The notes below the pieces were generated by a model that saw only the letters and a program-made list of their open reading frames with translations, searched no databases and was not told where the DNA came from. From Mobula hypostoma (Eukaryota), in contig NC_086097.1 of the NCBI RefSeq assembly GCF_963921235.1, forward strand, positions 51,524,001-51,588,000: 64,000 nt of DNA, in the 5' to 3' direction. The stretch's first letter is position 1; the number at the start of each line of letters is the position of its first letter. This document shows, in pieces, positions 3,666 through 63,770 of the stretch. Made by a program: the position numbers and the translations under genes.

Positions 3666-3910
3666 TAAATACTTACTTGTTTTTACATTTACCATTCATA
3701 ATTTACATCTAATGTTTTGCTAAGATTCATCAAGAAATATGAACCATTATATGATTAACAGGATCTGATAGAAGTTGAAATATCACATGCAATAGTTGGT
3801 CCAAATGGTAGTGTTTCATGAGAAAACTAGAAAATGGATGAATTACTGCTTCATTTGCATTAATAGTCAGATGACTTTTTTTTTCCCCTAAGTTCATCAC
3901 TGTGATGTTT

Positions 3911-5981
3911 AAACATAGAAAACTTACAGCACAATATAGGCCCTTCGGCCCACAATGCTGAGCCGAACATGTACTTACTTAGAAATGACCTAAGGTTATC
4001 CATAGCTCTCTATTTTTCTAAGCTCCATGTACCTATCCAGGAGTCTCTTAAACGACCTATCGTATCCGCCTCTACCACCGTTGCTGGCAACCCATTCCAC
4101 GCACTCACCAGTCTCTGCATAACTAACTTACCCCTGATATCTACTCTGTACCTACTTCCAAACACCTTAAACCTGTGCCCTCTTGTGTTAGCCATTTCAG
4201 CCCTGGGAAAAAGCCTCTGACTATCCACACGATCAATGCCTCTCATCATTTTATACACCTCTATCAGGTCACCTCTCATCCTCTGCCGCTCCAAGGAGAA
4301 AAGGCCGAGTTCACTCAACCTATTCTCATAAGGCATGCTCCCCAATCCAGGCAACATCCTTTTAAATCTTCTCTGCACCCTTTCTATAGTTTCCACATCC
4401 TTCCTGTAGTGAGGTGATCAGAGCTGAGCACAGTACTCCAAGTGGGGCCTGACAATGGTCCTATATAGCTGTAACATTACCTCTCGGCTCTAAAACTCAA
4501 TCCCACAGTTGAGGAAGGCCGATGCCTTCTTAACCACAGAGTCAACCTGTGCAGTAGCTTTGAGTGTCCTATGGACTCGGACCCCAAGATCCCTCTGATC
4601 CTCCAACACTGCCAAGAGTCTTACCATATTATTACTATATTCTGCCATCATATTTGACATACCAAAACGAACCACCTCACACTTGTCTGGGTTGAACTCC
4701 ATCTGCCACTTCTCAGCCCAGTTTTGCATCCTATCGATGTCCCGCTATAACATCTGATAGCCCTTCACACTATCCACAACACCCCTAACCTTCGTGTCAT
4801 CAGCAAATTTACTAACCCATCCCTCCCTCCCTCCACTTTATCATCCAGGTCATTTATAAAAATCACAAAGGGGTCCCAGAGAAGATCCCTGAGGCACACC
4901 ACTGGTCACTGACCTCCATGCAGAATATGACCCATCTACAACCACACTTTGCCTTCTGTGAGCAAGCCAGTTCTGGATCCACAAAGCAAGGTCCCCTTGG
5001 ATCCCATGCCTCCTTACTTTTTCAATAAGCCTTGCATGGGATACCCTATCGAATGCCTTGCTGAAATCCATATACACTACATCTACTACTCTGCCTTCAT
5101 CAATGTTTTTAGTTACATCCTCAAAAATTCAATCAGGCTTGTAATGCATGACCTGCCTTTGACAAAGCCATGCTGACTATTCCTAATCATATTATGCCTC
5201 TCCAAATGTTCATAAATCCTGCCTCTCAGGATCTTTTCCATCAACTTGCCAACCACTGAAGTAAGATTCACTGGCCTATAATTTCCTGGGCTATCTCTAC
5301 ACCCTTTCTTGAATAAAGCAACAACATCTGCAACCCTTCAATCCTCTGGAACCTCTCCTGTCCCCATTGATGATGCAAAAATCATTGCCAGAGGCTCAGC
5401 AATTTCCTCCCTCACCTCCCACAGCAGCCCGGGGTACATCTTGTCCCGTCCCAGAGACATATTCAACTTGATGCTTTCCAAAAGCTCCAGCACATCCTCT
5501 TTCTTAATGTCTATATGCTCAAGATTTTCAATCCACTGTAAGTCATCCCCACAATCACCAAGATCCTTTTCTGTAGTAAATATTGAAGCAAAGTATTCAT
5601 TAAGTATCTCCGTTATCTCATCCAGTTCCATACACATTTTTCCACTGTCACACTTGATTGGTCCTATTCTCTCACGTCCTATTCTCTTGCTTATCCCATA
5701 CTTGTAGAATGCCTTGGGGTTTTCCTTAATCCTGTCTGCCAAGGCCTTCACATGGCCCCTTCTGTCTCTCCTAACTTCATTGTTAAGCTCCTTCCTGCTC
5801 ACCTTATAATCTTCTAGTTCTCTATTGTTACCCAGTTTTTTGAACTTTTCGTAAGCTTTTCTTTCTTTCTTGACTAGATTTACAACAGCCTTTGTACACC
5901 ATGGTTCCTGTACCCTATCATCCTTTCCCTGTCTCACTGGAACGTACCTATGCAGAACGCCACACAAATATCCCCTGAACA
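3911..5981 (-). mobile_element. 5'-truncated CR1-type LINE (RT ORF2 with frameshifts)
   Basis: ORFs 5338..6015, 4850..5077, 4490..4729, 4010..4396: YMDFSKAFD, SGVPQGS, WQMEFNPDKC, RMRGDLIEVYK; ttctatgttt tail. Confidence 0.93.
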
Positions 5982-12323: not shown

Positions 12324-13181
12324 TTATACCACATAGAATATACAGGACCAAAATCATTCAGTGAAAATCAGGGCCTCACAACAAAAGCTGATTCCATGTT
12401 TCATCTCATCTGGTCTATTTTTTTATATACCAAATTCTTATCTAAAGCTCCATTATATAAATTTTCCTGCCCAAATTTCTCCATCTCTACCTAACAGGTG
12501 GTTAGGATCATTTGGTAATTCTCAGTTATGAAGAAAATAAACAAAAGCCTAGTTAGTCTTATTTATCTGGTAAAATCAACTGGTTTGATTAGAAACATTG
12601 TTGATGGAAGAGATTCAATAGCTTGGAAGTTTTATGGCAGGTGAAGAAAGTTCTGGAATTCTCATTAAGTTTAAATGTAGCAGCCCAAAACAAAGTTATT
12701 TTGCATAGAAAATGGTTGGTTCTTTTCTCCGTTTGCCAATTTCAGCAGATCAAGATCTAATGGTCTTCTCTTTCTCCTACCTATTCTAGTTGCATGTTTT
12801 TATCTGAGTACATAATTCATTAGCTCAGAGACTTTGAGCAGAACTGAGGACCTACATCAGCACATTTTCTTTTTGCTACTGATGAAGAAATTAAGACAAT
12901 TTGTTGATTTGAACACAATGCATTTAATTTGAAAAAAATTAGTTGCAGTGAACTGAACAATCTTTTCCCAATCCTTTATATTTTTCTTTTACAGACGGCA
13001 AACTCAACATGATAAAGGAAACATGTGGAATTTCTTAATGGAGGGATTGATTTAGCTATTGAAATGATAATTTCCTTGAAAGTCATTACACAGAAAGCTT
13101 CATTTGTCTCTGTGACTTTGTAAAAGACAACCACAAAAAATGAATACCCTCCTTTTGCTTAACTTATGAAAAAAATTAGAA

Positions 13182-14927
13182 ACATAGAAAACATACAGCA
13201 CAGTACAGGCCCTTCAGCCCACAAGGTTGTGCCGAACATATCCCTACCTTAAAACTACCTAGGCTTACTCATAGCCCTCTATTTTTCTAAGCCCCATGTA
13301 CCTATCAAAAAGTCTCTTAAAATACCCTATTGTATCCGCCTCCACCACCGTTGCCGGTAGCCCATTCCACGCACTCACCACTCTCTGCATAAAAAACTTA
13401 CCCCTGACATCTCCACTGTACCTTCTCCCAAGCACCTTAAACCTGTGCCCTCTTGTGGCAGCCATTTCAGCCCTGGGAAAAAGCCTCTGAATATCTACAC
13501 GATCAATGCCTCTCATCATCTTATACACCTCTATCAGGTCACCTTTCATCCTCTGTCGCTCCAAGGAGTAAAGGCCAAGTTCACTCAACCTATTCTCCTA
13601 AGGCATGCTCCCCAACCCAGACAACATCCTTGTAAACCTCCTCTGCACCCTTTCTATGGTTTCCACATCCTTCCTGTAGTAAGGCAACCAGAACTGAGCA
13701 CAGTACTCCAAGTGGGGTCTGATCAGGGTCCTATATAGCTGCAACATTACCTCTCAGCTCCTAAATTCAATTCCACGATTGTTGAAGGCCAATACACTGT
13801 ATGTCTTCTTAACCATGGAGTCGACCTGCACAGCTGCTTTGAGCGTCCTATGGACTCGGACTCCAAGATCCCTCTGATTCTCCACACTGCCAAGAGTCTT
13901 ACCATTAATACTATATTCTGCCATCATACTTGACCTACCAAAATGAACCACTTCACACTTATCTAGGTTGAACTCCATCTGCCACTTCTCAGCCCAGTTT
14001 TGCATCCTATCAATGTCCCACTGTAACCTCTGACAGTCCTCCACACTCTCTACAACACCCCCAACCTTCGTGTCATCAGCAATTTTACTAACCCATCCCT
14101 CCACTTCCTCATCCAGGTCATTTATAAAAATCACGAAGAGTAAGGGTCCCAGAACAGATCCCTGAGGCACACCACTGGTCACCAACCTCCATGCAGAATA
14201 TGACCCATCTACAACCACTCTTTGCCTTCTGTGGGCAAGCTAGTTCTGGATCCACAAAGCAATGTCTCCTTGGATCCCATCCCTCCTTACTTTCTCAATG
14301 AGCCTTGCAGGAGGTACCTTATCAAATGCCTTGCTAAAATCCATATACACTATAACTACTGCTATTCCTTCATCAATGTGTTTAGTGACATCCTCAAAAA
14401 ATTCAATTAGGCTCGTATGGCATGACCTGCCTTTGACAAAGCCATGCTGACTATTCCTAATCATATTATGCCTCTCCAGATGTTCATAAATCCTGCCTCT
14501 CAGGATCTTCTCCATCAACTTGCCAACCACTGAAGTAAGACTCACTGATCTATGATTTCCTGAGCTATCTCTACTCCCTTTCTTGAATAAGAGAACAACA
14601 TCCGCAACCTTCCAATCCTCTGGAACCTCTCCTGTCCCCATTGATGTTGCAAAGATCATCGTCAGAGACTCAGCAATCTCCTCCCTTGCCTCCCACAGTA
14701 GCCTGGGGTACATCTCATCCGGTCCTGGCGACTCGTATCGAACTTGATACTTTCCAAAAGTTCCAGCACATCCTCTTTCTTAATATCTACGTGCCCATGC
14801 TTTTCAGCCCGCTGCAAGTCATCACTACAATCACCAAGATCCTTTTCCATAGTGAATACTTAAGTAAAGTATTCATTAAGTACCTCTGCTATTTCCCGTT
14901 TCCATCCACACTTTCCCATTGTCACAC
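13182..14927 (-). mobile_element. 5'-truncated CR1-type LINE, same family as 3911-5981
   Basis: ORFs 14240..14713, 13754..14218, 13265..13588 (SGVPQGSVLGPLLF, ADDTKVGG); attagaa duplicated at 13175-13181 and 14928-14934. Confidence 0.93.
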
Positions 14928-15151: not shown

Positions 15152-15697
<546 letters not shown>

Positions 15698-18340: not shown

Positions 18341-19792
18341 TTTATGAAGAGATTAAAGGCATCACATGAGTGATTACTGCACCACACAATGTGCCTCACA
18401 GTCAATTATAATTTACTATTTTCAGTTCCCAAAGTCCATCTGCACTACCAGTAGGGACTTCAACTGGCCTTTCTCAGTCTCACATGTATTTATAAACTGT
18501 AAACACATAGTTATACTAAAGATAATAAATGAACATAGCATAGGAAAAACTAAAAATTTACCATGGCAAATGAACCAGTTTATTAGATTTTTTCATGATG
18601 TTCCAAATCAGATGAATAGGAGAAAGTTACTGGATATTAGCTGCCTGTGTACGAAAAAGCATTTAATACTATCTACATAATAGACTAATTTATAACGTGT
18701 GCACCCTCAGGATAAATGGCAAACCGAGACTGAATGGTGGCTGGAATGCTTCTACACCCCAAACTTTTAAATTGCTTCATCATTAGTGGTCATGTGTCGT
18801 GTCTAAACTATAAACTACAGTTTCCTTTAGACCTTTGAATTCTTATTCTTCCTCACTATTCCTCTTCATTTATAACTCAATTTAAAATTAGCCTCCTTAG
18901 ACTATGATCTTTTCCCAATACTTAATTTGGTTTTGAAAAACATTATTTGGTATTGTTCTTGAAATTTATTATATGTAATTAGTAAACATATGCTATTGTG
19001 TACACTTAAATTGGAACTGATAGCTGGTATTGAATCCCATTGGATATTGATAATGGTATTCCTGTGGTTTAATTCTAATGACAAGAACATAAATAATGTA
19101 GATTTTGACCAAAAGTTATCTAAAATAAAACTGAATAGTTTTAATTATTAGATTATATTATTTGACAGAGGTAAGCCATAAAAAAAATATAGTAACATAT
19201 TTAAAGTAACATCATTGAATGGGGTGTTCAAAGTGATATTATTAAAGCAACCAATTTAAATGTTTTCAGATAGATAACAATAAAATAATGGGTAATAATA
19301 GATTTGTTGCCCTGAGGATATTAATAGTCAATCATTGTGTGGACCACAGTGTGGATAGATCAGGGCTGACAGATTTCCTTCCTCGAAGATAAACACACGG
19401 GCTTATAGTTAGGGCTTGACCTCCAATGAATACACCAAATTTTTGAATTCAGTTTAAAATCTTGTTGTGGTTGGATCTGAAGTCTCTGCTCTATTCTTTG
19501 GTGTTTTTGTTTTAAAAAACAGTTTGAGGGAATATTCTCCCCTTGTTCATTGTTAGACCTTCCTTCAGATGTTACTTGCTGTATAGCTGAGCTATGATAG
19601 TCTTGCTTACTATGGGTACTAACAGTTAAAAAATCGTATGTTCTTGCACTGGAATAACTTCACACTGGTAAAATAAAGACAGATATTAGATTACCAAAAG
19701 GAAGATTGATTTTTGATTAACTTTCTTATATCTTATCTTGACAGTACAGAAAGTTTGACTGAATCACCATAGGCAGTGTTAATGTAAACCAA

Positions 19793-20063
19793 AGACGAGG
19801 AAATCTGCAGATGCTGGAATTTCAAGCAACGCATAAAAGTTGCTGGTGAACACAGCAGGCCAGGCAGCATCTCTAGGAAGAGGTGGAGTCAACGTTTCGG
19901 GCCGAGGCCCTTCGTCAGGACTAATTGAAAGAATAGCCATCTCTTACTAGCTCTTCTTTCAGTTAGTCCTGACGAAGGGTCTCAACCTGAAACATCGACT
20001 CTACCTCTTTCTAGAGATGCTGCCTGGCCTGCTGCGTTCACCAGCAACTTTTATGTGTGTTGC
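19793..20063. mobile_element. Miniature fold-back Penelope-like insertion (inverted ~110 bp arms, 14-bp TSD)
   Basis: Arms 19826-19933 and 19954-20063; ttaatgtaaaccaa duplicated at 19779-19792 and 20064-20077. Confidence 0.88.
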
Positions 20064-20489
20064 TTAATGTAAACCAAGTTACTTCTGTAGGGAAAGTGCT
20101 GAAGCAAAAATAAATCATATAATACATTGACATTTCCCTAGTCAGAATGCTGACATAAAAAAGCAACATTGTAAAAGCCATTGAAATCCTCCACATTTCA
20201 ATAAACTTGAAATGCTTATAGCAATGAGGTTGCCTTCACTTACAGAATGAACTTTCTTTTTTTCCTGAAGGAGTGCCCTGTCTAGTTTTTAATTATTTAT
20301 TAATACCACCATCTATTCAGTGAGAACATGCAGTACTGGACATAATTAATACAATGGTGGAAATATTGGTTTAGTATTCTTCTGCTAACCCTCTTGAAAT
20401 AAAACTAGTTAACACAATTGTTTTCTTTGAGGCTGTTGAATTATTTGATTGAATATGATTCAAATGTGTCATAACAAGTCAACAAGGTG

Positions 20490-28672: not shown

Positions 28673-29874
28673 CTAAGCAGAAATTGTGTAGTCCTCAAGG
28701 AAACTATAGGACATTATTCTCAACTGGCACTTCGCTAACCATCTGGGTTTAGCCAGATGACCATTAAACCATCACTTAATTAATTCAGAATTTCAGGAAA
28801 TATTCATATGTCTGAATCGTTTTGAAGGTTTTACCTCTTTATTAATGTCTATGCCAACCAATGTTTCGTGGATTGTGTGTGTCTGGAAGTGAATGCAAAT
28901 CACTATTTCTTAAATGCAAATTTTTCTGGGCTCTCTGGCTAAGCCCTAAATTCTATCTTTTACAAGGCATTTAACAGTGCTATGTATTGTTGTAACAATT
29001 ATACACTATTAAGAGGTTACCAATGTCGTAAAATCCCAACCGTTTTATCTTTAAAACTACTGTGCATAGATGGAAGTTATAAATTTAACTGCTGCAATTT
29101 TTTTTAATGGAAATTATCTTCACTTGTAAGATATTACAATAAAAAAGCAAATCAAAAAAGTTACCGAATAGATCTTACTGAATATTATACATAACCTCTT
29201 GATATTCAAAACCAAAATGTAAAACCTGTAAAATATTGCACAACATTCTAAATTTTTTAAAACTTCTCAGCAAGTTTAAAATACTCTTATTTCTGGATCC
29301 AATGAAAGGTTAGAAAATGAACATTAATGTAAACATAAAAAAGTCCACAAAGGATCTATGAACTCCAGATTTGAACAATTTCATTTGAAAAGCAAGTCCG
29401 AATCTAATTATTTATTAGGTCTCAATACAAGGTGATTCTGACAGCCAGAACTTGCTTATAATCTTACAATTTAGCTAAATGATTGCCAACATCAGTTACA
29501 AGTTCAAAATTCAGATACAATATTCATTCCCATGCACAGATCATAGATAATAATTGGATTCCATGTTCTTAAAAATTCAATTCTGTTTAAAAATTCAGTT
29601 TAGATTATATCCGTAAGGACCTTCAGAGTACTCAAGTACAAAATCAAACCAACCCTTGCTGACACTTGGCCATTTCAGTATAAATGCTATTTTCTAAGTA
29701 CTAATTTTAAAATTTTCACTGGGGAAAGAGACAATTGAAGGAATTCCCTCAGAACAATCAGACTCATTTGTCTTAGTCTTTTCTTTACATCGAAATTTTT
29801 TGAATGAACATTAAGATGAAAATAGTTCAAAATATTAATATTTTTTGAGGTGACCCGAGTCACCCCAACCATAA

Positions 29875-30132
29875 TCTATTCCAGCTGCTACCATATGGGA
29901 AATGGTACCGCAGCATAAAAGCCAGGACCAACAGGCTCCAGGACAGCTTCTTCCACCAGGCCATCAGACTGATTAACTCAAGTTAATTTGAGTGTATTTC
30001 TATGTTACATTGACTGTTCTATTTATTATAAATCACTATGATAGCACATTGTACATTTAGATGGAGACGTAATGTAAAAATTTTTACTCCTCATGTATGT
30101 GAAGGATGTAAGAAATAAAGTCAATTCAATTC
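29875..30132 (+). mobile_element. Rex1/Babar-like LINE 3' fragment
   Basis: LLPYGKWYRSIKARTNRLQDSFFHQAIRLIN; AATAAA plus (caatt)n tail. Confidence 0.75.
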
Positions 30133-30278
30133 AAAGAACTTCAGTTTTATGAAGCAGTAAATAACAATGAGTTTAGAGAGCAAACAACAGGAATTCTGCA
30201 GATGCTGGAAATTCAAGCAACACACATCAAAGTTGCTGGTGAACGCAGCAGGCCAGGCAGCATCTATAGGAAGAGGCG

Positions 30279-30316
30279 CAGTCGACGTTTCAGGCCGAGA
30301 CCCTTCGTCAGGACTA
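30279..30316 (-). ncRNA. Minimal hammerhead ribozyme motif, mirror copy (sense to TRIM9 transcription)
   Basis: Reverse complement of 32608-32645. Confidence 0.7.
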
Positions 30317-32607
30317 ACTGAAGGAAGAGTGAGTAAGGGATTTGAAAGCTGGAGGGGGAGGGGGAGATCCAAAATGATAGGAGAAGACAGGAGGGGGAGG
30401 GATAGAGCCGAGAGCTGGACAGGTGATAGGCAGAAGGGGATACGAGAGGATCATGGGACAGGAGGTCCGGGAAGAAAGACGGGGGGGGGGTGACCCAGAG
30501 GATGGGCAAGAGGTATATTCAGAGGGACAGAGGGAGAAAAAGGAGAGTGAGAGAAAGAATGTGTGCATAAAAAAGAGTAACAGATGGGGTACGAGGGGGA
30601 GGTGGGGCCTAGCGGAAGTTAGAGAAGTCAATGTTCATGCCATCAGGTTGGAGGCTACCCATACGGAATATAAGGTGTTGTTCCTCCAACCTGAGTGTGG
30701 CTTCATCTTTACAGTAGAGGAGGCCGTGAATAGACATGTCAGAATGGGAATGGGATGTGGAATTAAAATGTGTGGCCTCTGGGAGATCCTGCTTTCTCTG
30801 GCGGACAGAGCGTAGATGTTCAGCGAAGCGGTCTCCCAGTCTGCGTCGGGTCTCACCAATATATAAAAGGCCAGATCGGGAGCACCGGACGCAGTATATC
30901 ACCCCAGTCGACTCACAGGTGAAGTGATGCCTCACCTGGAAGGACTGTTTGGGGCCCTGAATGGTGGTAAGGGAGGAAGTGTAAGGGCATGTGTAGCACT
31001 TGTTCCGCTTACACGGATAAGTACCAGGAGGGAGATCAGTGGGGAGGGATGGGGGGGACGAATGGACAAGGGAGTTGTGTAGGGAGCGATCCCTGCGGAA
31101 TGCAGAGAGAGGGGGGGGAGGGAAAGATATGCTTAGTGGTGGGATCCCGTTGGAGGTGGCGGAAGTTACGGAGAATAATATGTTGGACCCGGAGGCTGGT
31201 GGGGTGGTAGGTGAGGACCAGGGGAACCCTATTCCTAGTGGGGTGGTGGGAGGATGGAGTGAGAGCAGATGTACGTGAAATGGGGGAGATGCGTTTAAGA
31301 GCAGAGTTGATAGTGGAGGAAGGGAAGTCCCTTTCTTTAAAAAATGAAGACATCTCCCTCGTCCTAGAATGAAAAGCCTCATCCTGAGAGCAGATGCGGC
31401 GGAGACGGAGGAATTGCGAGAAGGGGATGGCGTTTTTGCAAGAGACAGGGTGAGAAGAGGAATTCCTCTTCTCACCCTGTCTCTTGCAAAAACGCCATCC
31501 CCTTCTCGCAATTCCTCCGTCTCCGCCGCATCTGCTCTCAGGATGAGGCTTTTCATTCTAGGACGAGGGAGATGTCTTCATTTTTTAAAGAAAGGGGCTT
31601 CCCTTCCTCCACTATCAACTCTGCTCTTAAACGCATCTCCCCCATTTCACGTACATCTGCTCTCACTCCATCCTCCCACCACCCCACTAGGAATAGGGTT
31701 CCCCTGGTCCTCACCTACCACCCCACCAGCCTCCGGGTCCAACATATTATTCTCCGTAACTTCCGCCACCTCCAACGGGATCCCACCACTAAGCATATCT
31801 TTCCCTCCCCCCCTCTCTCTGCATTCCGCAGGGATCGCTCCCTACACAACTCCCTTGTCCATTCGTCCCCCCCATCCCTCCCCACTGATCTCCCTCCTGG
31901 TACTTATCCGTGTAAGCGGAACAAGTGCTACACATGCCCTTACACTTCCTCCCTTACCACCATTCAGGGCCCCAAACAGTCCTTCCAGGTGAGGCATCAC
32001 TTCACCTGTGAGTCGACTGGGGTGATATACTGCGTCCGGTGCTCCCGATGTGGCCTTTTATATATTGGTGAGACCCGACGCAGACTGGGAGACCGCTTCG
32101 CTGAACATCTACGCTCTGTCCGCCAGAGAAAGCAGGATCTCCCAGTGGCCACACATTTTAATTCCACATCCCATTCCCATTCTGACATGTCTATCCACGG
32201 CCTCCTCTACTGTAAAGATGAAGCCACACTCAGGTTGGAGGAACAACACCTTATATTCTGTATGGGTAGCCTCCAACCTGATGGCATGAACATTGACTTC
32301 TCTAACTTCCGCTAGGCCCTACCTCCCCCTCGTACCCCATCTGTTACTCTTTTTTATGCACACATTCTTTCTCTCACTCTCCTTTTTCTCCCTCTGTCCC
32401 TCTGAATATACCTCTTGCCCATCCTCTGGGTCACCCCCCCCCCGTCTTTCTTCCCGGACCTCCTGTCCCATGATCCTCTCGTATCCCCTTCTGCCTATCA
32501 CCTGTCCAGCTCTCGGCTCCATCCCTCCCCCTCCTGTCTTCTCCTATCATTTTGCATCTCCCCCTCCCCCTCCAGCTTTCAAATCCCTTACTCACTCTTC
32601 CTTCAGT

Positions 32608-32645
32608 TAGTCCTGACGAAGGGTCTCGGCCTGAAACGTCGACTG
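32608..32645 (+). ncRNA. Minimal hammerhead ribozyme motif (Penelope-associated)
   Basis: agtc-CTGACGA-agg(gtctcgg)cct-GAAA-c-GTC-gact: stem I agtc/gact, core boxes intact, stem III reduced to the ACGT palindrome. Confidence 0.7.
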
Positions 32646-35099
32646 CGCCTCTTCCTACAGATGCTGCCTGGCCTGCTGCGTTCACCAGCAACTTTGATGT
32701 GTGTTGCATGAGTTTAGAGAGTTTAGGAGTGATTGAAAAAAAGTAAAAAGGTCTATTATACTAGAAAAGATGTCTTCTTTGGTGGGGAAAATTAGCAAAA
32801 AAATGTATTTGTTAAATTAGACCCATTCCTTTTAATAGAGAAATCATGAAGCATCTTTTCACATTAATGGTAATCATTTTTGGGAATCTGGATCAAACAT
32901 TCCCAATGAAAGCAGAAGATCCATCTTTTAGTTTTAAATTCCATAACAAGATTCAAAATCCAGGATAAAGTCACTAAAATAATTATCAGCAAAACATGCA
33001 TTGATTATCAATAGTCCCTGAACTATTTGAACCAATAAACCAACATTATTTCAATACTAGTGAAACATAGCACAAACTTATTCTTCATATCTTAATTTAA
33101 AAGTATACTATATACTCATACTATCTTCTAATCAGGCATGCAAAAACTATACACCTAAATGGAATTGTCCAGTTCACATCTATACATGCTCAACTCCTAC
33201 TGTAGACCAGGCAACTGGAATCTTCATGATTATTGAAATTGTTGCTCTGCAGAAGATGGATAATCACAACCTTCTCTCTTCTTTTCCCCCCTAACCACAG
33301 CTCGGTATCAAGGCTTAAATCGTGCAAGCCAAAGTTCTCCATCCATGACCAATGCTGCTTTATGAGGATCCAAGAAAGGTGTGTTGTTCTATTGTTCCCT
33401 GAATGTTCATCTCATGCACCTGATGGCAGCTCCAGTGTAAATTTTCAGTAGTTGCTGCAATGACCAGGAAGAATCAGAAAAAAAAAATGGTGGTCTTGGT
33501 GACTGGTTTTAATAACTCTACCAAATTTACACTGGGGTTGCTGCAGATGCACAATACGGAGAACTCAACTTCCAACAACAGAAGATTCTACTCATATTAC
33601 CATGCTAATTCAGAGAAGATTCATATTAAGTGGTCACTTCACTACAAGTACACTCTTTGGCCATCTTTAATTGAAAGAACAAAAATCAGCTTCTGCATCA
33701 ATTTTTGCCAGTGCATACCTATGATTTAACAGACTAATACTTTTTCATTGCTGCCAAAAAATGAAGCTTTAAGGTAATATTTTAACCCCCATTGCCAAAG
33801 CTGATTTCAAAGACTGTTGGAAATGTCTTCCTCCATTGATCAGGGTCTACCATGGATGCTATATCCTAGCTGTCCATGCAAATCAGAGCAGAATGATGTG
33901 AAGAGTAAGCTGTTGCCTCTACATCTAGCTGATGAATCCAAGGGAATGGCAGAGGCCGATACAGTTCGGCACCAGTGGCAGCTGCCTAAAGCAACTCTTT
34001 TTTTAAAAAAAAGTCATCAGTAACCTGCCTTTGCCCCATCTCCTGTCAATAGAAACAGTTCCACCAGGCTTAGTAGCAAGCCACATGTGAAGGCCATGAG
34101 CTGGACTTGGTTGTCAGGGGCTATTTGAGACACATGCCATTGGGAGTATTTACTAGGTAGTGGGAGCTTATCCCCACTTCTCCCCCTGCCCTCCCAGCTA
34201 TGACAATCTTAAGAAACTATGGCAACCTTAAGTCTCCCCTTAAGCCTCTGTAATAATGTATACATTTCTAAAATTGATGGCTGGAATTTTCAAAATGTTT
34301 TTGTTACTGCAAAAAAGGACTAATTTGCAGAAGTTATCAAAAATAAATTTGTTAACTGTTATTGACTTGATTATATAATAATATGTAAAACTGTTCTTCC
34401 GGTCTACTTTAGTATCCATTAACAGGATTGCATCAAAAAAAACTACCAAAAGGGTATGCAATGGGCATTTTAAAATGTTAATTAGCGTGCCAAGTTTTTT
34501 CAGAATTTTTAAGAGTGCCTATAATTAACAGTAACACTATGGCACAGTATTATTTATTGTTACACATTTGATTTTATTAACATATCAGATCCAATAATAA
34601 GTGTATTTTTGGATAGAAAAGGCCACTTCCAGTTGAATTCACTGTATTAGAATCAGATCAAAACCTCCATCATGAAACATTATCACATTGTGAAAATATG
34701 TATAATCAAATTCCATAGAGAAAAATGTCCTTTAAAAAATAAAATCAATTGGATGACCAAGGATTTATGTTAGAGTTAATCATTTAATTTTATGATAATT
34801 TTTGCTTTTACCAAATGGCAGTCTTCCTGTTCATGTAAAAATGTTGCCCTGTCTCCTTCATCAAGAAATTTCAAGTATAGGTAATTGTTTTGTTAATGTC
34901 AAAATGATATACAGATTGTCATTTTGGTACTTTAAAGGTTATTACTGAAAACAAATTTGAATATAATTTACAATCTTAAGATGGGAGAAGGCATCCTTTT
35001 CTGAAGTATAGGAATGCAGAGAGGAACACATGAAATGACCAACAGCCAATGAATATATTTATGAATAATCTTTTTAAAGAACATTTAAAAAAATATTCA

Positions 35100-42439: not shown

Positions 42440-44556
42440 GGGCTTAAATGTCATCACTTCTACAAAGAAAAACCAAGCAACATAAATGGCAATGAGGATT
42501 CACTCCCAGATGAGCTCAATGCCTTTTATGCTCACTTTGGCCGACAGAACATGGAGGCTCCTTCATGAACTCCCACAGCCTCTGAAGACCCTCTGAGGCC
42601 GAAGTGGAAGCATCATCATTAAACTCCAAAATCTGAGCCTTGGCATCTCCCTGTGGAAATGGATTCTCAATTTCCTCACGAGCAAACTCCAGTTAGGATG
42701 GATTGGCAATACCATCTCCTCTGCACTCATGTGCAAATGCACAGGGGAATTTGTGCTTAACCTCCTACTCTACTCACTTTATACTTATGTGTGCCTAAGT
42801 ACAGCTCCAATCCCATAGTTAAGTTGGAAGGGAGATTGAAAATCTACTTGAGTGGTACCACAACAAAATCCTCTAATTTAGCATTGGAAATACCAAAGGA
42901 AGACACCAGAGGTCCACGAGAGTCTTCCTTAGGGGAATGGACACGGAGAATTTCAGTAGCTTTAAATTCCTTGGTGTTGTCAGATCAGAAGATCTGTCCT
43001 GGAATCAGCATGCAAGTGCCATCACTAAGAGGGCACAACGGCGCCTCCACTTTCTTAGAAGTTTGTGTACTTCCGGCATATCACCAAAACTTTAACAAAC
43101 CTCTACAGATTCATAGCAGAGTGTATTCTAAACACAAGAGATTCTGCAGATGCTGGATGCTGGAAGCCTGATGAAGGAATTAGGTCCAAAACATTATTTC
43201 CTTATTCCCCTCCATATATGTTGTGTGCCTAGCAGAGTTCCTCCAGCATTTTGTGTGTATGGTGGAGAGTATCCTAACTGGTTGCAACATGGACTGGTAT
43301 GGAAGCACCAACACCCACGAATGGAAAAAGCTGCAGAAAGTGGTGGATAGAGCTCAGTCTATCACAGGCAAACCCTTCCCAATACGAAGTACATTTACAA
43401 GGAGAGCTGCCACAGGAAAGCAGGATGCATCACCCAACAGCCCCACAATCAGGTCATATCCTCTTCTTGCAACTACCATCAGGCCAGAGCTAGGGAAGCC
43501 TCAAATTCCACACAATAGGCTCAGGAACAGTTACTAACCTACAACTATCAGGTTCCTGAACCAGCGAGGATAACTTCATTCAGCACTACTAAGAACTGAG
43601 GCACAGACTCACTTTCAAGGACTCTTTACAACTCATGTTCACAGTATTATTTTCATTTGTAGTTTCTCTTCTTTTTGTGCATTGCTTTTTTGTCAATCTT
43701 TGCATATTTTTAGATAAAATTCCATTATATTTCCTTTTCCCCGTAAATGCCCGCAAGAAAATGAATCTAAAGGTAGTTGTGATAGAGAGCACTGAGTAAA
43801 TGCGCTCCCTACACACACACACACACACAGCCTTGTCATTCTGCTGTCATTGCAGTGAGCGTACGCACTTCAGTGTCTTCCCCGTATATCCTCATAGTTG
43901 ACCCACTGCTTTCCCTCCGGATTGGTGCATGCGGTCAGAGTCAAACACTAAGGTGTGATTTGATTTTGTACTTGACTGCAAGTGTGCGATTGTGTTGAGC
44001 GTTCTGCTGCAGCTTCCTGGCAGTCATGTGGCCTCCACTGGATCCGAACCGGAGCTGCAGGGTTGGCTTTATGGTGCCCTTCCCCACCATACACGATGGA
44101 ATATTCCATTACTTTAGTAATGGGGATGTGTAGATGTTGTTTGTATACTGTATAAGGTAGATACTTCAGTTTATTTTGTAATATGGTTGTAACTACATAT
44201 GACGCACCCCACACTGTAGTCTTAAGTTAACTTTATTGGTAATTAAAAATGGTATGCGCCAGTGTCCAACGAAAAGGAGCTCTTATGCCTCAGTATGAGA
44301 GAGAAAGGTAGGGACTGTCAAGAGTTCACACTGGACAAAAAAACTCCAGAGCTATTAGTGTTTTCTTGTAGATATCATTTTGGAAATATTGGCATTTTGC
44401 TTTTCACTAATTTTTATGCACCTAATAAACACCCTTGCACTAAAGTGCAAAGTGTCTTCAGCCATTTTTTCTTTGGTCATAATCCATGTATCTAACAGTA
44501 GTATATAGTAACTATACACACTTTGATAATAAATTTACTTTGAATTTGAACTTGAA
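42440..44556 (+). mobile_element. Degenerate Rex1/Babar-like LINE with nested insertions
   Basis: SLPDELNAFYAHF, VESILTGCNMDWYGS, KKLQKVVDRAQSITG, RLRNSY; 3' UTR split by an LTR. Confidence 0.8.
43778..44497 (+). mobile_element. Solo LTR, 720 bp
   Basis: TGT...ACA termini, 5-bp TSD gtagt at 43773-43777 and 44498-44502, AATAAA at 44424; removing it restores the host LINE 3' UTR. Confidence 0.8.
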
Positions 44557-46756: not shown

Positions 46757-46886
46757 CATAAACACAGAAGATTCTGCGAGTAACACCTAAACAGTCCTGA
46801 TGAAGGGTCTTGGTCAAAACATCGACTGTTTACTCACTTCCACAGAGGCTGCTTGTCCTGCTGAGCTCCTCCTACGTTTTGTGTGT
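46757..46886. mobile_element. Miniature Penelope-like insertion with inverted tail and 15-bp TSD
   Basis: gctgagtKgggagag duplicated at 46742-46756 and 46887-46901; decayed hammerhead cagtcctgatgaagggtcttggtcaaaacatcgactg. Confidence 0.75.
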
Positions 46887-48221
46887 GCTGAGTTGGGAGA
46901 GGTCACTTTTCAGCCCAGAGAAGAGTTCACTGTGATGATCCCATGAGTTTTAATTTAAAAAACTGCTTTCATTGTTGTGCAATAATTACATTTACTTGGA
47001 TACTTGAACAGCTGTGACCTACTGGGCTGGAATCTAATGCTGGAAGGTCCTGGACTTGAAACGTTCACTTTCTCCACAGTGTCTCCAATATTTTCTACTT
47101 ATATTTCTGATTTACAACATCTGAAGACTTTAAGGTTTTTATATTTTTAGGATACAAATTTTGGGGAGTAGAAGGTAAGATCAGAGGGTGGAGAGTATAA
47201 TGCTCCTTTGTCAGTAGTATCAAATATCCAAGAGTTTTTATAAGAACTCGACTGAGCATGCACCTCAGTTTTCATTATAACAAAAGCTACCAAGTACAAT
47301 CAATATGATTTGGTGATGGGAACTGGTGAGTTTTAAGGAACTTAATACTGAACCACATACTTTAACAAACATCCTATAGCATCATTGTAGATGGTATTGT
47401 GTTCAAATAGACACCAAAATTATTACTGATATGAATTTCAATTTGGAAAGAGATTCACAATTAAATAAAAAAGCTATCTGCATCTTACATCTTCATTAAG
47501 GATGACCTCCCATCTCAATTCCAATTACTACAACACACTCCATTCAAGTCTCACTTCCATAGTAATTACTAACCATTTCAATTTTCTGCCTACCTTTCTA
47601 ATATCCAGCTACTTCATTATGTGAGTAAGTGTCTGAAGCCAGTTAATTATTTTTACAATTTTCTTCTCAGAAAGTTGTTCTCAAGTTGATGAGCATACAT
47701 TGAAAGATCAGTTGTGCGTACTGCATACAAACCATTTATAATGAGGAATTTGAACTGCTTAGATTAACATGACAAAATCCTCTGCAAATTGCTTTTATGG
47801 CTTTAATAGATTACCTAAAAATAAAATGATTCAATACACGATTTACCAATAATCAACTGTAACATCTTTCAATTCATGAAAAGCGAGTGGATCAGAATAC
47901 ACCAGGAAGAACAACCAAGATTCTTGCTATCTGCATGAATTAATTTTATAGCTTCCAACTGATCTGTGAAGCTACCTTCAACCCTGAAACTCCAAATACT
48001 GCTGAATGCCATCAAAATCTTTGGAATCTTAGCATAATCGAGTCACACACTTGCCTACTACACTAGTTAACAGTGTTCACACCTTAAATATTCACTATAA
48101 TAATGTCTGCAATTTAGATTTAAATAATGATAAAATATTGTTGACCTCAGAAAACATTTAAAGAGATATGAGGGGTACAACTACTGCTTTGCTAATAAAA
48201 ACAAAAGTTACTGTAAATATT

Positions 48222-56014: not shown

Positions 56015-56353
56015 ATAGAAACATAGAAAACCTACAGCACAATACAGGCTCTTTGGCCCACAAAAATGAGCTGAACATGTCCTTACCTTAGAAATTACCC
56101 AGGGTTACCCATAGCCCTCTCTTTTTCTGAGCTCTATGTACCTTTTCAGGAGTCCTTTAAAAGACCCTATTGTATCGGCCCTACCACCGTTGCCGGCAGC
56201 CCATTCCACGAACTCACCACTCTCTGCATAAAAAAAACTTATTCCTGACATATCCTCTGTACCTACTTCCAAGCACCTTAAAACTGTGTCCTCTCGTGCT
56301 AGCCATTTCGGCCCTAGGAAAAAGCCTCTGACTATCCACACGATCAATGCCTC
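56015..56353 (-). mobile_element. CR1-type LINE 3' end, same family as 3911 and 13182
   Basis: High similarity to 3911-4245. Confidence 0.88.
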
Positions 56354-58852
56354 TTATGTATCAATTCATGCACAGTGCATCAAAACAAACAAAATTCACA
56401 CATGTAAAAGTATTCAGGGTAAAATCAAGATACTGCTTCATCCGAAGCCTGAATTGATATATATGTTTAGGCTACCCTGCAGCTATGATCAAACATGGGG
56501 AACTTCAACCTGCCTTTGCAGCATTGTTAAATTATCAGAACTAATTTATTGCCATCTAAATATCAAAGATCTTACTGCAGTCTTGTTTTTTTTTAAAAAA
56601 ACAAGGCTTTTTGATAATCTTGATGTCACAAAGTCCATAACATAATTGAGCACAATTCAGACTATGTCAGATTCAGCTTTAAATTAATGGTGGATTTAGC
56701 TAAAAGAAAATTCATTTGTATAGCTCTCAAAATATCTCAATATGTTTCGACCAATTACCCATAATTATTTTTGACATTAGTTCTCACTCTAATGGGCAAA
56801 TGTGCACATGAAGCCACACAAACACTGAGGTATATGATAAAATAATTATGAAGTATTGCTAGTTACTAAAACAATTATGTTATTTAGTTAAAGTCCCAGC
56901 AACAAAAATGCGGTCTAAATAAGTGGACATAACTACAATGCATTAAATAATCTAATTATATGTTGAACCCAATTTCATGATACATAGTGATTTCCATGCA
57001 AAGTCATGCTCTTTCTTATGGATCCTCATATTTCCTCAAATCTAAACACTTTAACACACTTATTTAGGTTTGAGGAAATGTTTTGTTTCAAAATATCTCA
57101 GATCATTAAATCTAATACAAAATGTTTATTCCAAATTGAGGCAAATTGTAATTCTCTATTTTGGTGCTCACATCCTCTAATCTAAACAATGAATAATAAG
57201 ATCATCAAATGTCAGAGAAATTCAATGAAAATCAATTTGTTATTTTAATGATTTACAAATTCTGGGTTCATTTGTGATAACAGAAAGATTTATATTCCTA
57301 TGTAATATTCTTTTTGTTGGTGATCAAAAACCAGTTTAAGTGACATAACTTCCATTTAAAGCAGCTGTGTATGTCTGTGTATGTTTTTTTCCCCCCAAAG
57401 AAAACAAAGTAATATTTGTTCAATTTTTAAATTTAATTCTGGTGGTTAGTTCTTGGGGGTCTCATTTAAAATGAGGTTTAACCAATGAATAATATCTCTT
57501 GTCCAAAGCAGCACCAAAATTAATTTTCTTTCAATTTGCAATTTCCCTTAGGCTTATTAAAAATAAATATTACACTAATGACCATGAAACATTAGCATGT
57601 AGTGACAAAATAGGACAGTTAAATACTTAATTAAATCACAAAAATCCTAATACTTAAATAGTCCCGACTGAACCAGTAAGAGACAAAGCATATACAGAGT
57701 ACTATAGTCTGACAAAAATGAACCATTAGATCTAAAATTACAAACCTTAACCTTTTAAATTATAACCATTATTGGCCAGCAAGTGACATGGTGCATTCAT
57801 TCCAATGAACACAATGTGCCAGTGTACTTTGTTCTGTGCTCTTAAATCGCCCCACACAGTAAAGTCATGATTCTATTTAGATGGTGACAATAATGGAGGG
57901 AGGGGTAATGGACCTCAGGCTACGATGTAGAACAGAGTCAAACAAGGTTATATGCAGCTTTACCCTCTCAACTCACATCCCATCTCATCACTTTTGTCAA
58001 TTGTAAAAGCCCTGAAACCAAACAAAATCTTTCACAAAAGAAAGTATTGATCCATGTCCTCCTCATTTCAGTCTTACGTCAAGCAATTCCATTACTGTAG
58101 ATCAATAATATTCCAGTAACCATGGCAGAATATTAAACAAGCATTTTTTTTTAAAAACTTACTGCTTTAAGGTTTACATTGTTGGCCCTGAAGCAGCACT
58201 GTGTGAATTAATGAAGACAAGGGAAGGCAGATGCTGGAATATGGAGCAAAAAATTAAGCTGCTTGAGGAACTCAGGAGGTCAGATAGCATTTGTGGAGTG
58301 AAACAAGTAGCCGACAGTCCAGATGAAGGGCCTTGACCTGAAATGTCAACTGTCTTTTTCCATCCAGGAATGTGACTAGTGGATCAAAATGCTTCTATGC
58401 AGCAGGGAGCTGTCAGTGGTTCTTATTAAATAGGTAATGACATTTGGACAAACAAGGCAAGTACCATACAATGGATCAATCTTTTTTGAAAATATGTGCA
58501 CATTTGAATAATAAACTGTTTTTCAATAACTGTTTGCAGCACAGCATTTAAGTACAATCTTAAGGGAGATGGATAGCTTGCTTTAAGAATATTGAAGATT
58601 AAAAGGGATGAAATTAGAGTAGATGGCTCACATGGAAAGAAAGCATCAGCTCTTGACTCGCTGCTTGCACTGTAACATACTCTATTCTATAATCACCCTG
58701 CAACTAATTAATGTGATCTTTTAAAAAATGCAAGATTCTTGCCAATAATATTTCTTTTAAATTATAACATGTACTCAAAAGTTAATATAAAAACACCAAA
58801 ACAAATTACTGGCAATGGGGGAAATCAATGCAAAATGTCTGCATTGATATTC

Positions 58853-61252: not shown

Positions 61253-63770
61253 AACAAGAGAAAACCTGCAGAGGCTGGAAACCTGAGCAACACACACAAA
61301 ATGCTGGAGGAACTCAACAGCCTAGGCAGCATCTATGGAATAAAAGTACAAACGACATTTCGGGCCGAAACTCTTCGGTAGGACTGGAGAAATAAAGCTG
61401 ATGAGTAGATTTAAAAGGTGGTGGGGGTGAGGGGAGAGAGAACCACCAGGTGATATGTGAAAGTTGAAAGGTGATTGGTGAGCTGAGGTGAGAGGGGGAA
61501 AAGGGAATGGGAAATGAAGAAAGTGTGGGGGGGGGGGTTTGGGGGGCATTACCAGAAGTTTGAGAAATCGATGTTCATGCCATCAGGTTGGAGGCTATCC
61601 AAATGGAATACAAGGTGTTGTTCTTACAAGGTGTGGCCTCATCATGACAGTGGAGGAGGCCATGGAAGGACATATTGGAATGGGAATGGGAAGTGGAAAT
61701 TAAATGGGTGGCCACTGGGAGATCCCGCTTGTTCTGGTGAACGGAGTGTAGATGCTTGACGAAGCAGTCTCCCAATCTATGTCGGGTCACACCGATGTAC
61801 AGGAGGCCACACCAGGAGCATCAAACACAGTAAATGACCCCAACAGATTCACAGGTCAAGTCAAATCACTTTTTATTGTCATTTCAACCATAACTGCTGG
61901 TACAGTACACAGTAAAAACGAGACAACATTTTTCAGGACCATGGTGCTACATGAACAATACAAAAACTACACTGAACTACATAAAACAACACGAAACTAC
62001 ACTAGACTACAGACCTACCCAGGACTGCATAAAGTGCACAAAACGGTGCAGGCATTACAATAAATAATAAATAAGACAATATGCACAGTAGAGGGCAGTA
62101 GGTTGGTGTCAGTCCAGGCTCTGGGTATTGAGGAGTCTGATGGCTTGGGGGAAGAAATTGTTACATAGTCTGGTCGTGAGAGCCCGAATACTTTGGTGCC
62201 TTTTGCCAGATGGCAGGAGGGAGAAGAGTTTGTATGAGGGGTGCGTGGGGTCCTTCATAATGCTGTTTGCTTTACGGATGCAGCGTGTGGTGTAAATGTC
62301 TGTAATGGCAGGAAGAGAGACCCCGATGATCTTCTCAGCTGACCTCACTATCCGCTGCAGGGCCTTGCGATCCAAGATGGTGCAATTTCCAAACCAGGCA
62401 GTGATGCAGTTCTCAGGATGCTCTCAATACAACCTCTGTAGAATGTGGTGAGGATGGTGGGTGGGAGATGGACTTTTCTCAGCCTTCGCAAAAAGAAGAG
62501 ACGCTGCTGGGCTTTCTTTGCTATGGAGTTGGTGTTGAGGGACCAGGTGAGATTCTCCTGCAGGTGAACACCAAGAAATTTGGTGCTCTTAACGATCTCT
62601 CTGGAGGAGTCGTCGATGTTCAGCGGAGAGTGGCCGTTCTGTGTCCTCCTGAAGTCAACAACCATCTCTTTTGTTTTGTTCACATTCAGAGACAGGTTGT
62701 TGGCACTGCACCAGTCCGTTAGCTGCTGTATCTCCTCTTTGTATGCTGACTCATCGTTCTTGCTGATGAGACCCACCACGGTCGTGTCATCGGCAAACTT
62801 GATGATGTGGTTCGAGCTGTGTGTTACAGCACAGTCATGGGTCAGCAGAGTGAACAGCAGTGGACTGAGCACACAGCCCTGGGGGGCCCTGTGAAGTGTC
62901 GCCTCACCTGGAAGGACTGTTTAGAGCCTTGGATGGTAGTGAAGGAGGAGGTGTAGGGGCAGGTGTAGCACTTTTTCCGCTTGTAAGTATAAGTGCTAGG
63001 AGGGAGATCAGTGGGGAGGGACGAATGGACAAGGGAGTTGTGTAGGGAGCGATCCCTGCAGAAGGCAGAAAATGGGGAAGGGGGAGAGGGAAAGATGTGT
63101 TTTGTGGTGGGATCTTGTTGGAAGTGGCAGAAGTTTCGGAAAATTATGTGCTGGATGCAGAGGCTGGTGGGGTGGCAGGAGGATGGGGTAAGAGAAGATG
63201 TGTGTGAAATGGAAGAGATGCAGTTGAGGGCAGCGCTGATGGTGGAGGAAGGGAAGTCCCTTTCTTTGAAAAAGGAGGACATCTCCTTTGTTCCAGAATG
63301 AAAAGCCTCATCCTGAGAGCAGATGCGGCAGAGACATAGCAATTGAGAAAATGAGCTGGCATTTTTACAAGCAGTAGGGTGGGACAAGGTGTAGTCTAGG
63401 TAGAAGTGAGAGTCCGTAGGTTTGTAATAGACATCAGTGGATATGCTGTCTCCGGAGGTAGAGACAGTGAGATCGAGAAAGAGAAGGGAGGTGTTGGAAA
63501 AAGAACAGGTGAATTTGAGGGCAGGGTGCAGGTGGAATTTGGAGGCAAAGTGGATGAAGTCGACAAGTTCAGCATGGGTTCAGGAAGCAGCACTAATGCA
63601 ATTGTCGATGTAGCGTAGGAAAAGTGCGGGATGGTCACCAGTGTAGGCTTGGAACATAGACTGTTCCACGTAGCTGACAAACAGGGACCTCTGTGATTGC
63701 CCATGGATACCCCTTTTGTTTGAAGGAAGTGGGAGGAGCCAAAGGAGAAATGATCGAAAATAGCACTCCC
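61253..63770 (-). mobile_element. Older Penelope-like (Neptune-type) element split by a Rex-like LINE
   Basis: RT motif FLRYIDNCISAAS (63580..63786), thumb/linker ORF 62842..63387, GIY-YIG remnant 61575..61790, same 3' terminus as the 30181 element. Confidence 0.9.
61857..62890 (-). mobile_element. Rex1/Babar-like LINE 3' part nested in the Penelope element
   Basis: ORFs 62348..62872 and 62109..62375 (PQGCVLSPLLF, KFADDTTVVG, NFFPQAIRLLN); (acttg)n tail. Confidence 0.92.

Follow-up and report, generated by a model that had tools for sequence, protein, structure and literature searches.

How does a retroelement come to lie in a chromosome as two copies of itself, joined head to head with no base between them, and how can such a palindrome last? 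The question is raised by a 2.5-kb palindrome of Penelope-like element (PLE) sequence in Mobula hypostoma (assembly GCF_963921235.1). It lies in the 64,000-nt stretch of contig NC_086097.1 from 51,524,001 to 51,588,000, which is the window analysed here; it contains no N, and all positions below are window positions. The palindrome sits within one target-site duplication (TSD) in an intron of TRIM9. We lean towards an origin in which both nicked strands of the target primed reverse transcription, probably on one RNA.

A spacer-free palindrome within one target-site duplication

Global alignment of the reverse complement of 30181-31462 with 31463-32707 showed that 30217-31462 is the reverse complement of 31463-32707, and that the two arms meet at GAGGAA/TTCCTC without a spacer. 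The symmetry is perfect for 134 bp on each side of the axis, where the window reads GAGGAATTCCTC. Over their whole length the arms differ by nine substitutions (left/right: 31328/31597, 30874/32050, 30778/32146, 30729/32195, 30665/32259, 30604/32320, 30404/32520, 30369/32555 and 30266/32658) and a single 1-nt indel in a G/C run (31118 on the left, 31807 on the right). An exact 14-bp TSD adjoins both outer ends; from the window composition, an exact 14-mer would occur at a given position by chance with a probability of 6e-9. The final 36 nt of the element, its tail, are found on the left arm only (30181-30216). An EcoRI site (GAATTC) begins at 31460, on the axis, and another starts at 30191, in the tail. 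In an inverted-repeat search of the window, the palindrome was the longest inverted repeat by far. The first-pass annotation had described the same arm coordinates, about nine substitutions and one G-run indel, a zero spacer, a 14-bp TSD around the whole unit, 36 final nt on the left arm only and the EcoRI site at the axis; each was borne out, and we regard the palindrome as almost certainly real. The target site right after the right arm contains a short direct repeat, GAGTTTAG, which occurs twice in 32708-32729.

A Pfam scan of the flanks (130 of 192 frames) gave one match, fn3, which led to TRIM9. On the minus strand, between 40935 and 12066, eight TRIM9 exons are matched in order, among them an exon at 15155-15454 that is 96-98% identical to shark TRIM9. 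The insertion sits between the consecutive exons at 35285-35127 and ~28660-28515, and this order on either side of the palindrome makes a fold-back misjoin unlikely.

The arms as the 3' end of a probable Neptune-type element

By their sequence, the arms correspond to the last 1.25 kb of a PLE, probably of Neptune type, and their 3' ends point outward, because they combine a GIY-YIG match, invariant CCHH residues, the linker CKRNKCYTC and a putative hammerhead core near each outer end. The GIY-YIG domain in the right-arm frame has a Pfam E-value of 1.5e-4 and 22.4 bits, just below the cut-off of 22.6, and C193, C196, H215 and H231 are invariant in all nine aligned sequences. In the left arm, the G run near 31118 holds a 1-nt frameshift. 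The 283-aa frame has 73 longer protein relatives, the best of them, annotated as a zebra shark protein, at 63% identity; no named PLE reference element is among its protein matches. The Penelope-like identity proposed in the first-pass annotation is thus supported by the nuclease match, the CCHH residues and the relatives. Many of the 73 contain the reverse transcriptase (RT) domain PF00078, aligning upstream. The RT core has been truncated away in the focal copy, which, judged by its coding content, cannot move itself.

CKRNKCYTC matches the CX2-5CxxC motif upstream of GIY-YIG, a linker given for both Neptune and Nematis (PMC8557442), so that the motif does not tell these two apart; the vertebrate PLE groups reported are Neptune and Poseidon. 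A 30-40 nt tail at one end, together with an inverted 5'-truncated partner and a TSD, is a PLE trait (PMC8557442), and these traits of endonuclease-containing (EN+) PLEs are all present here, with a one-sided tail of 36 nt. With both arms truncated, a tandem pseudo-long terminal repeat (pLTR) would not be expected in this copy. The minimal hammerhead class is described in PMC4209133. Rfam gave no hammerhead match in the palindrome, and the putative monomer folds no better than shuffles.

Three other identities were rejected. As a microRNA precursor, the palindrome gave 17 Rfam matches, all under the gathering score and all centred on the axis. The frames of 315-322 aa that cross the axis are sense/antisense chimeras and not a functional open reading frame (ORF). 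Foldback elements and miniature inverted-repeat transposable elements (MITEs) are moved by a transposase and have terminal inverted repeats that are symmetric, whereas here the ends are asymmetric by 36 nt and the arms are retroelement coding sequence. Metagenome scans found nothing.

Both arms stop at the same family nucleotide

We compared 28700-31500 with contigs of four of 23 sequencing runs (X1, X2, X7 and X19). The contigs were dominated by family copies and by the tail of a long interspersed element (LINE) at ~29880-30134, and the comparison draws on 15 joints (of 1052), 24 loose ends (of 5739) and 32 pieces, none of which falls on the junctions of the locus itself. Among the loose ends listed, family contigs from X1, X2 and X7 match the window through 31463 and then continue as AGTCCAGATAGC (AGTCC...); loose ends before 31462 occur in X2, and X19 has no continuation among those listed. 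The family reads Y-L-D-Y/S-S-S-H-P in the sense direction at the axis, where relatives have YLEY, YLLH or YLNF followed by x-S-S-H-P. From this continuation beyond 31463 and the matching protein relatives, both arms are seen to end at the same nucleotide of the family sequence, with a 2-nt overlap, AT (31462-31463). The self-complementary microhomology that the first-pass annotation placed at the axis is therefore present, but its word is AT and not AATT. By eye, the family has GGA-ATAG-TCC where the window has GGA-AT-TCC. An excess of records running past the end of the compared stretch (X1/X2: 11 and 10 versus 1 and 1) was not used, as it can arise from family contigs that fit the 38 mirrored bases.

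Joints between a LINE tail and a PLE end at other loci were found at 30180-30182, 30193-30195 and 30215-30219 (X1, X2 and X7; seven of the 15 joints listed). Both outer ends of the focal copy are thus recurrent family termini. One TSD, a common family endpoint and minor alleles shared by the arms support the claim of the first-pass annotation that a single insertion event made both arms, which we consider very probable.

Arm divergence and the age of the symmetry

The arms diverge by 9/1245 = 0.72% (95% range 0.33-1.37%), below the flank divergence between organisms A and B among the runs (20/1180 = 1.7%; Fisher p 0.04). At 30874, 30778 and 30729 the derived letter is on the left arm, and the window letters there make up at most 0.4, 1.3 and 0.9% of the X1 family depth; the G-run frameshift is also left-derived. 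Judged by older copies in the window, 32259, 32320, 32555 and 32658 are derived on the right. The polarity of 31328/31597 is mixed, as the older copy sides with the left arm and most protein relatives with the right. In total, three substitutions and the frameshift fall on the left, four substitutions on the right, and two (31328/31597 and 30404/32520) are unassigned. Both arms also have minor alleles of the X1 family contigs in common (31023, at most 4.3%; 30825, 7.6%; 31129, 12.7%; 30662, 13.4%). Shared minor alleles together with rare arm-specific letters point to one donor lineage and later independent mutation. Since the differences lie on both arms and include rare alleles, the centre has likely stayed symmetric for long. 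CpG transitions account for one of the nine substitutions, which is uninformative on a CpG excess.

Smaller head-to-head pairs in the window

A profile built from six copies was searched against the window (16 rows, E up to 5). It found 12 further PLE-end loci, four of which are small head-to-head pairs; the other eight are single or weak matches. In all four pairs (one of them weak) the tail-less arm reaches further 5', and the tail side is the inverted arm in each. The pair at 19793-20065 has a 12-nt centre that belongs to the tail-less arm, 161 nt long versus 149 nt for the tailed arm. In the three older pairs (43130-43258, 46757-46890 and 58215-58399) the tail-less arm begins where the hammerhead motif begins, ~132-135 nt short of the 3' end. 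The pair at ~20 kb and the palindrome are both intronic in TRIM9.

As the tail-less arm is the longer one, snap-back of a tailed target-primed complementary DNA (cDNA) cannot explain these neighbours, and two primings on one RNA can. We treat this polarity as a lead, taken from four old, short copies, one of them weak.

How the two arms were joined

The reading that we hold, with moderate reserve, is that two 5'-truncated Neptune-type copies were joined head to head after both nicked strands had primed reverse transcription, probably on one RNA. At each junction the target strand runs 5' to 3' into antisense element sequence, which is the polarity of a primed cDNA. The endonuclease would make staggered nicks 14 nt apart, of which one 3'-OH would prime at the end of the tail and the other 36 nt further in, matching the two RT start sites found in vitro for the anole element. 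The trailing RT would displace the leading cDNA, and both would reach the same broken RNA end or be trimmed to the same point. Two identical cDNA ends could then anneal by their terminal AT and be filled in, leaving no spacer, after which the arms would mutate independently. The internally primed RT would be in the lead, and the focal copy would represent the limit where both reach the same end. Annealing of equal ends by AT would give the observed junction directly, without further loss. The first-pass annotation had offered two mechanisms, and oppositely primed cDNAs joined at a microhomology fit better than snap-back at AATT, which needs a zero-length loop.

Several points weigh against double priming. 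An overlap of 2 nt carries little weight, as self-complementary dinucleotides occur at 17% of arm positions. A 3-bp stem of the family, GGA-ATAG-TCC, has its centre at the axis, which mildly favours snap-back, and such stems occur at 12-14% of positions; because neither word is rare, the axis alone does not decide the mechanism. The junction palindromes of published PLEs are explained by self-priming on an antisense template (PMC3846280). The arm polarity was read from four neighbours that are short and older than the focal copy (in one the left arm scores E 4.3, and another lacks a detectable TSD), and it is not binding on the focal copy. The biochemical parallel, PAc (Poseidon of Anolis carolinensis), is of the Poseidon clade, whereas the focal element has the CX2-5CxxC linker, of another clade. 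Among the contig rows listed, which are swamped by family copies, neither a contig or read across the axis nor an empty site was seen.

An unlikely but substantial alternative is that a single cDNA snapped back at the mini-stem GGA-ATAG-TCC, or that an antisense RNA primed itself, and that copying back was followed by resolution by the endonuclease at the tail boundary, with 2 loop nt lost. The mini-stem is centred on the axis, equal arm lengths would arise at once, self-priming is the published reading for PLEs (PMC3846280), and a hairpin with 2-bp homology is reported at an L1-linked inverted duplication (10.1101/2024.12.14.628481). Nevertheless, snap-back at this stem leaves 2 nt more than observed and so requires an extra loss, equivalent stems are common along the arms, and it cannot build the four neighbouring pairs, in which the tail-less arm contains stretches that the tailed arm lacks.

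That the insertion is real but once had a spacer, lost later by germ-line hairpin processing or in sequencing and assembly, is improbable. The lack of an axis-crossing read among the rows listed would suit such a loss, as would the reported disturbance of nanopore reads by palindromes (PMC8701086) and the presence of only one of the nine substitutions in the inner 588 bp. The inner deficit is, however, not significant, and neither is homogenisation near the axis (Kolmogorov-Smirnov p 0.15; 0.38 with the indel). Reported repair of palindrome centres yields asymmetry (93% symmetry-breaking deletions; PMC8701086). The junction here is a clean overlap of family sequence.

Two different RNAs or successive insertions with a common endpoint by chance have a slim probability. 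The arms differ at 10 places, and a dimeric enzyme could carry two RNAs, but one TSD encloses both arms and no TSD separates them, independent truncations would be unlikely to give the same 5' end ~1.25 kb into the element, and minor alleles are common to the arms while arm-specific alleles are rare. Finally, a fold-back read chimera or assembly artefact can be set aside with little hesitation: no spanning read is among the rows listed and the best-holding runs (organism A, word shares 0.94-0.95) may be the assembly's own sample, but the arms differ at 10 places, the mirror ends at a recurrent family terminus and an exact TSD, consecutive TRIM9 exons are in order on the two sides, and the window has four smaller pairs built in the same way.

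Other features of the window

A very abundant LINE-like 3' end with a (TTCAA)n tail occupies 29880-30134, 33 bp left of the TSD. Contigs from other loci also join PLE ends to LINE tails of this kind, which may reflect a preference for such targets. A 1.7-kb repeat occurs twice, at 3908-5619 and 13177-14895; the two copies are ~90% identical and separated by 9.27 kb. A third, shorter copy is near 56016-56357, and these repeats are probably LINE 3' ends. An older PLE copy at 61253-63702 (minus strand) is 76-79% identical to the focal arms. Its part at 62845-63702 extends into the RT, and it is interrupted at ~61862-62890 by another repeat.

Table 1. Coordinates of the palindrome, the adjoining TRIM9 exons and the smaller pairs (window positions).
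Feature	Position	Strand	Basis or remark
PLE mini-pair	19793-20065		Exact 14-bp TSD TTAATGTAAACCAA (unit 19779-20077); left-only tail
TRIM9 exon next after the host intron, fn3 start, aa ~417-470 of P0076	28515-28660	-	Match; AG acceptor seen
Left TSD copy ATGAGTTTAGAGAG, 14 bp	30167-30180	+	Alignment
PLE tail, 36 nt, left arm only	30181-30216	-	Alignment; joints from other loci
Left arm, 5'-truncated PLE 3' end, antisense on +	30217-31462	-	Alignment
Putative minimal hammerhead core motif, left arm	30288-30311	-	Pattern match
Shared self-complementary AT at axis	31462-31463	.	Family contigs and protein relatives
Right arm, 5'-truncated PLE 3' end, sense on +, without tail	31463-32707	+	Alignment
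Open PLE ORF remnant, 283 aa and stop: post-RT-core region, CKRNKCYTC linker, GIY-YIG nuclease with CCHH	31464-32315	+	Pfam, protein alignment, motif
Putative minimal hammerhead core motif CTGACGA...GAAA, right arm	32613-32636	+	Pattern match
Right TSD copy ATGAGTTTAGAGAG	32708-32721	+	Alignment
TRIM9 exon upstream of the host intron, aa 369-421 of P0076	35127-35285	-	Match; GT donor seen
PLE mini-pair	43130-43258		9-nt TSD match, one mismatch; tail-less arm 132 vs 29 (~100 further)
PLE mini-pair	~46757-46890		TSD 14/15; tail-less arm 135, at least 59 further; left arm non-significant (E 4.3)
PLE mini-pair	58215-58399		No TSD found; tail-less arm 135 vs 106 (29 further)

Implications

The insertion pattern is already published, and only the arm length and the missing central gap are unusual; what is new is that the arms have a common endpoint in the family sequence, to the nucleotide, and overlap by the 2-nt AT. 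This single locus is a long, clean example of the published pattern, with its value as a limiting case. The origin of the inverted 5' copy of PLEs is unsettled between self-priming and two primings, and arm polarity together with junction overlap, counted genome-wide, would decide the mechanism cheaply. The persistence of the palindrome is notable, not unprecedented, and depends on correct assembly of the centre. If the centre is free of a spacer and as old as the 0.7% divergence suggests, the locus shows that a vertebrate germ line can retain a GC-rich palindrome of 2.5 kb; if the TRIM9 pre-mRNA runs through it, a double-stranded RNA fold of ~1.25 kb would form. A wider proposition, doubtful as it stands and offered tentatively, is that PLEs integrate by double priming on one RNA under a fixed rule, with the tail-less arm never shorter at its 5' end, and that kilobase palindromes without a spacer survive in the expressed introns of this genome on an evolutionary time scale, whereas in the mouse germ line their centres break within generations. 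If both parts were true, the genome would be a natural data set for the second-strand mechanism of PLEs and for palindrome tolerance.

Comparison with known systems

The focal copy resembles inverted EN+ PLE insertions (PMC3846280; general scheme in Craig et al. 2021, PMC8557442) in having a 5'-truncated copy in inverted orientation at its 5' end, a single TSD, a one-sided tail of 30-40 nt and a junction palindrome; Pen2a_Av of Adineta vaga likewise has inverted units inside a TSD with junction palindromes (PMC3846280). It differs from them in scale. The inverted parts in the published passages are pLTR-sized (181-218 bp; longer published cases are possible), whereas here the arms are 1.25 kb and include coding sequence. 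The published junction palindromes span 18-38 bp, whereas here the arms end at the same base. The focal copy also has no tandem pLTR and no full ORF. By title, none of the open-access papers listed in searches concerned a kilobase spacer-free PLE palindrome or twin priming in PLEs, which is not proof of absence.

Twin priming of L1 yields non-overlapping inverted and direct parts and a poly(A) tail. Here the arms duplicate each other over 1245 bp without poly(A), and we rejected membership in that class: the palindrome would work like such an insertion without being one. The focal copy would resemble L1 twin priming in that each end of the target primes on the RNA and the two cDNAs become joined head to head inside one TSD. 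It differs in that its second start would lie 36 nt away from the first and its arms duplicate each other. L1 twin priming is mentioned in 10.1101/2024.12.14.628481.

The PAc protein nicks and extends both strands in vitro, where its RT starts at two sites that bound the tail, and the PLE protein is predicted to be a dimer (PMC11167929). The focal locus would share with PAc the two RT start sites bounding the tail and the nicking and extension of both strands, and it has a putative hammerhead motif near the end as PAc does, although the PAc text, in the passages cited, does not model inverted insertions (PMC11167929).

As to persistence, a human catalogue lists 718 near-perfect spacer-free palindromes longer than 200 bp (reviewed in PMC7999016), and a perfect 15.4-kb transgene palindrome in the mouse was rearranged in ~35% of offspring (reviewed in PMC8701086). 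The focal palindrome is like the latter in its perfect central symmetry in a vertebrate chromosome, but it is six times shorter, and its centre has apparently been kept while the arms drifted by 0.7%.

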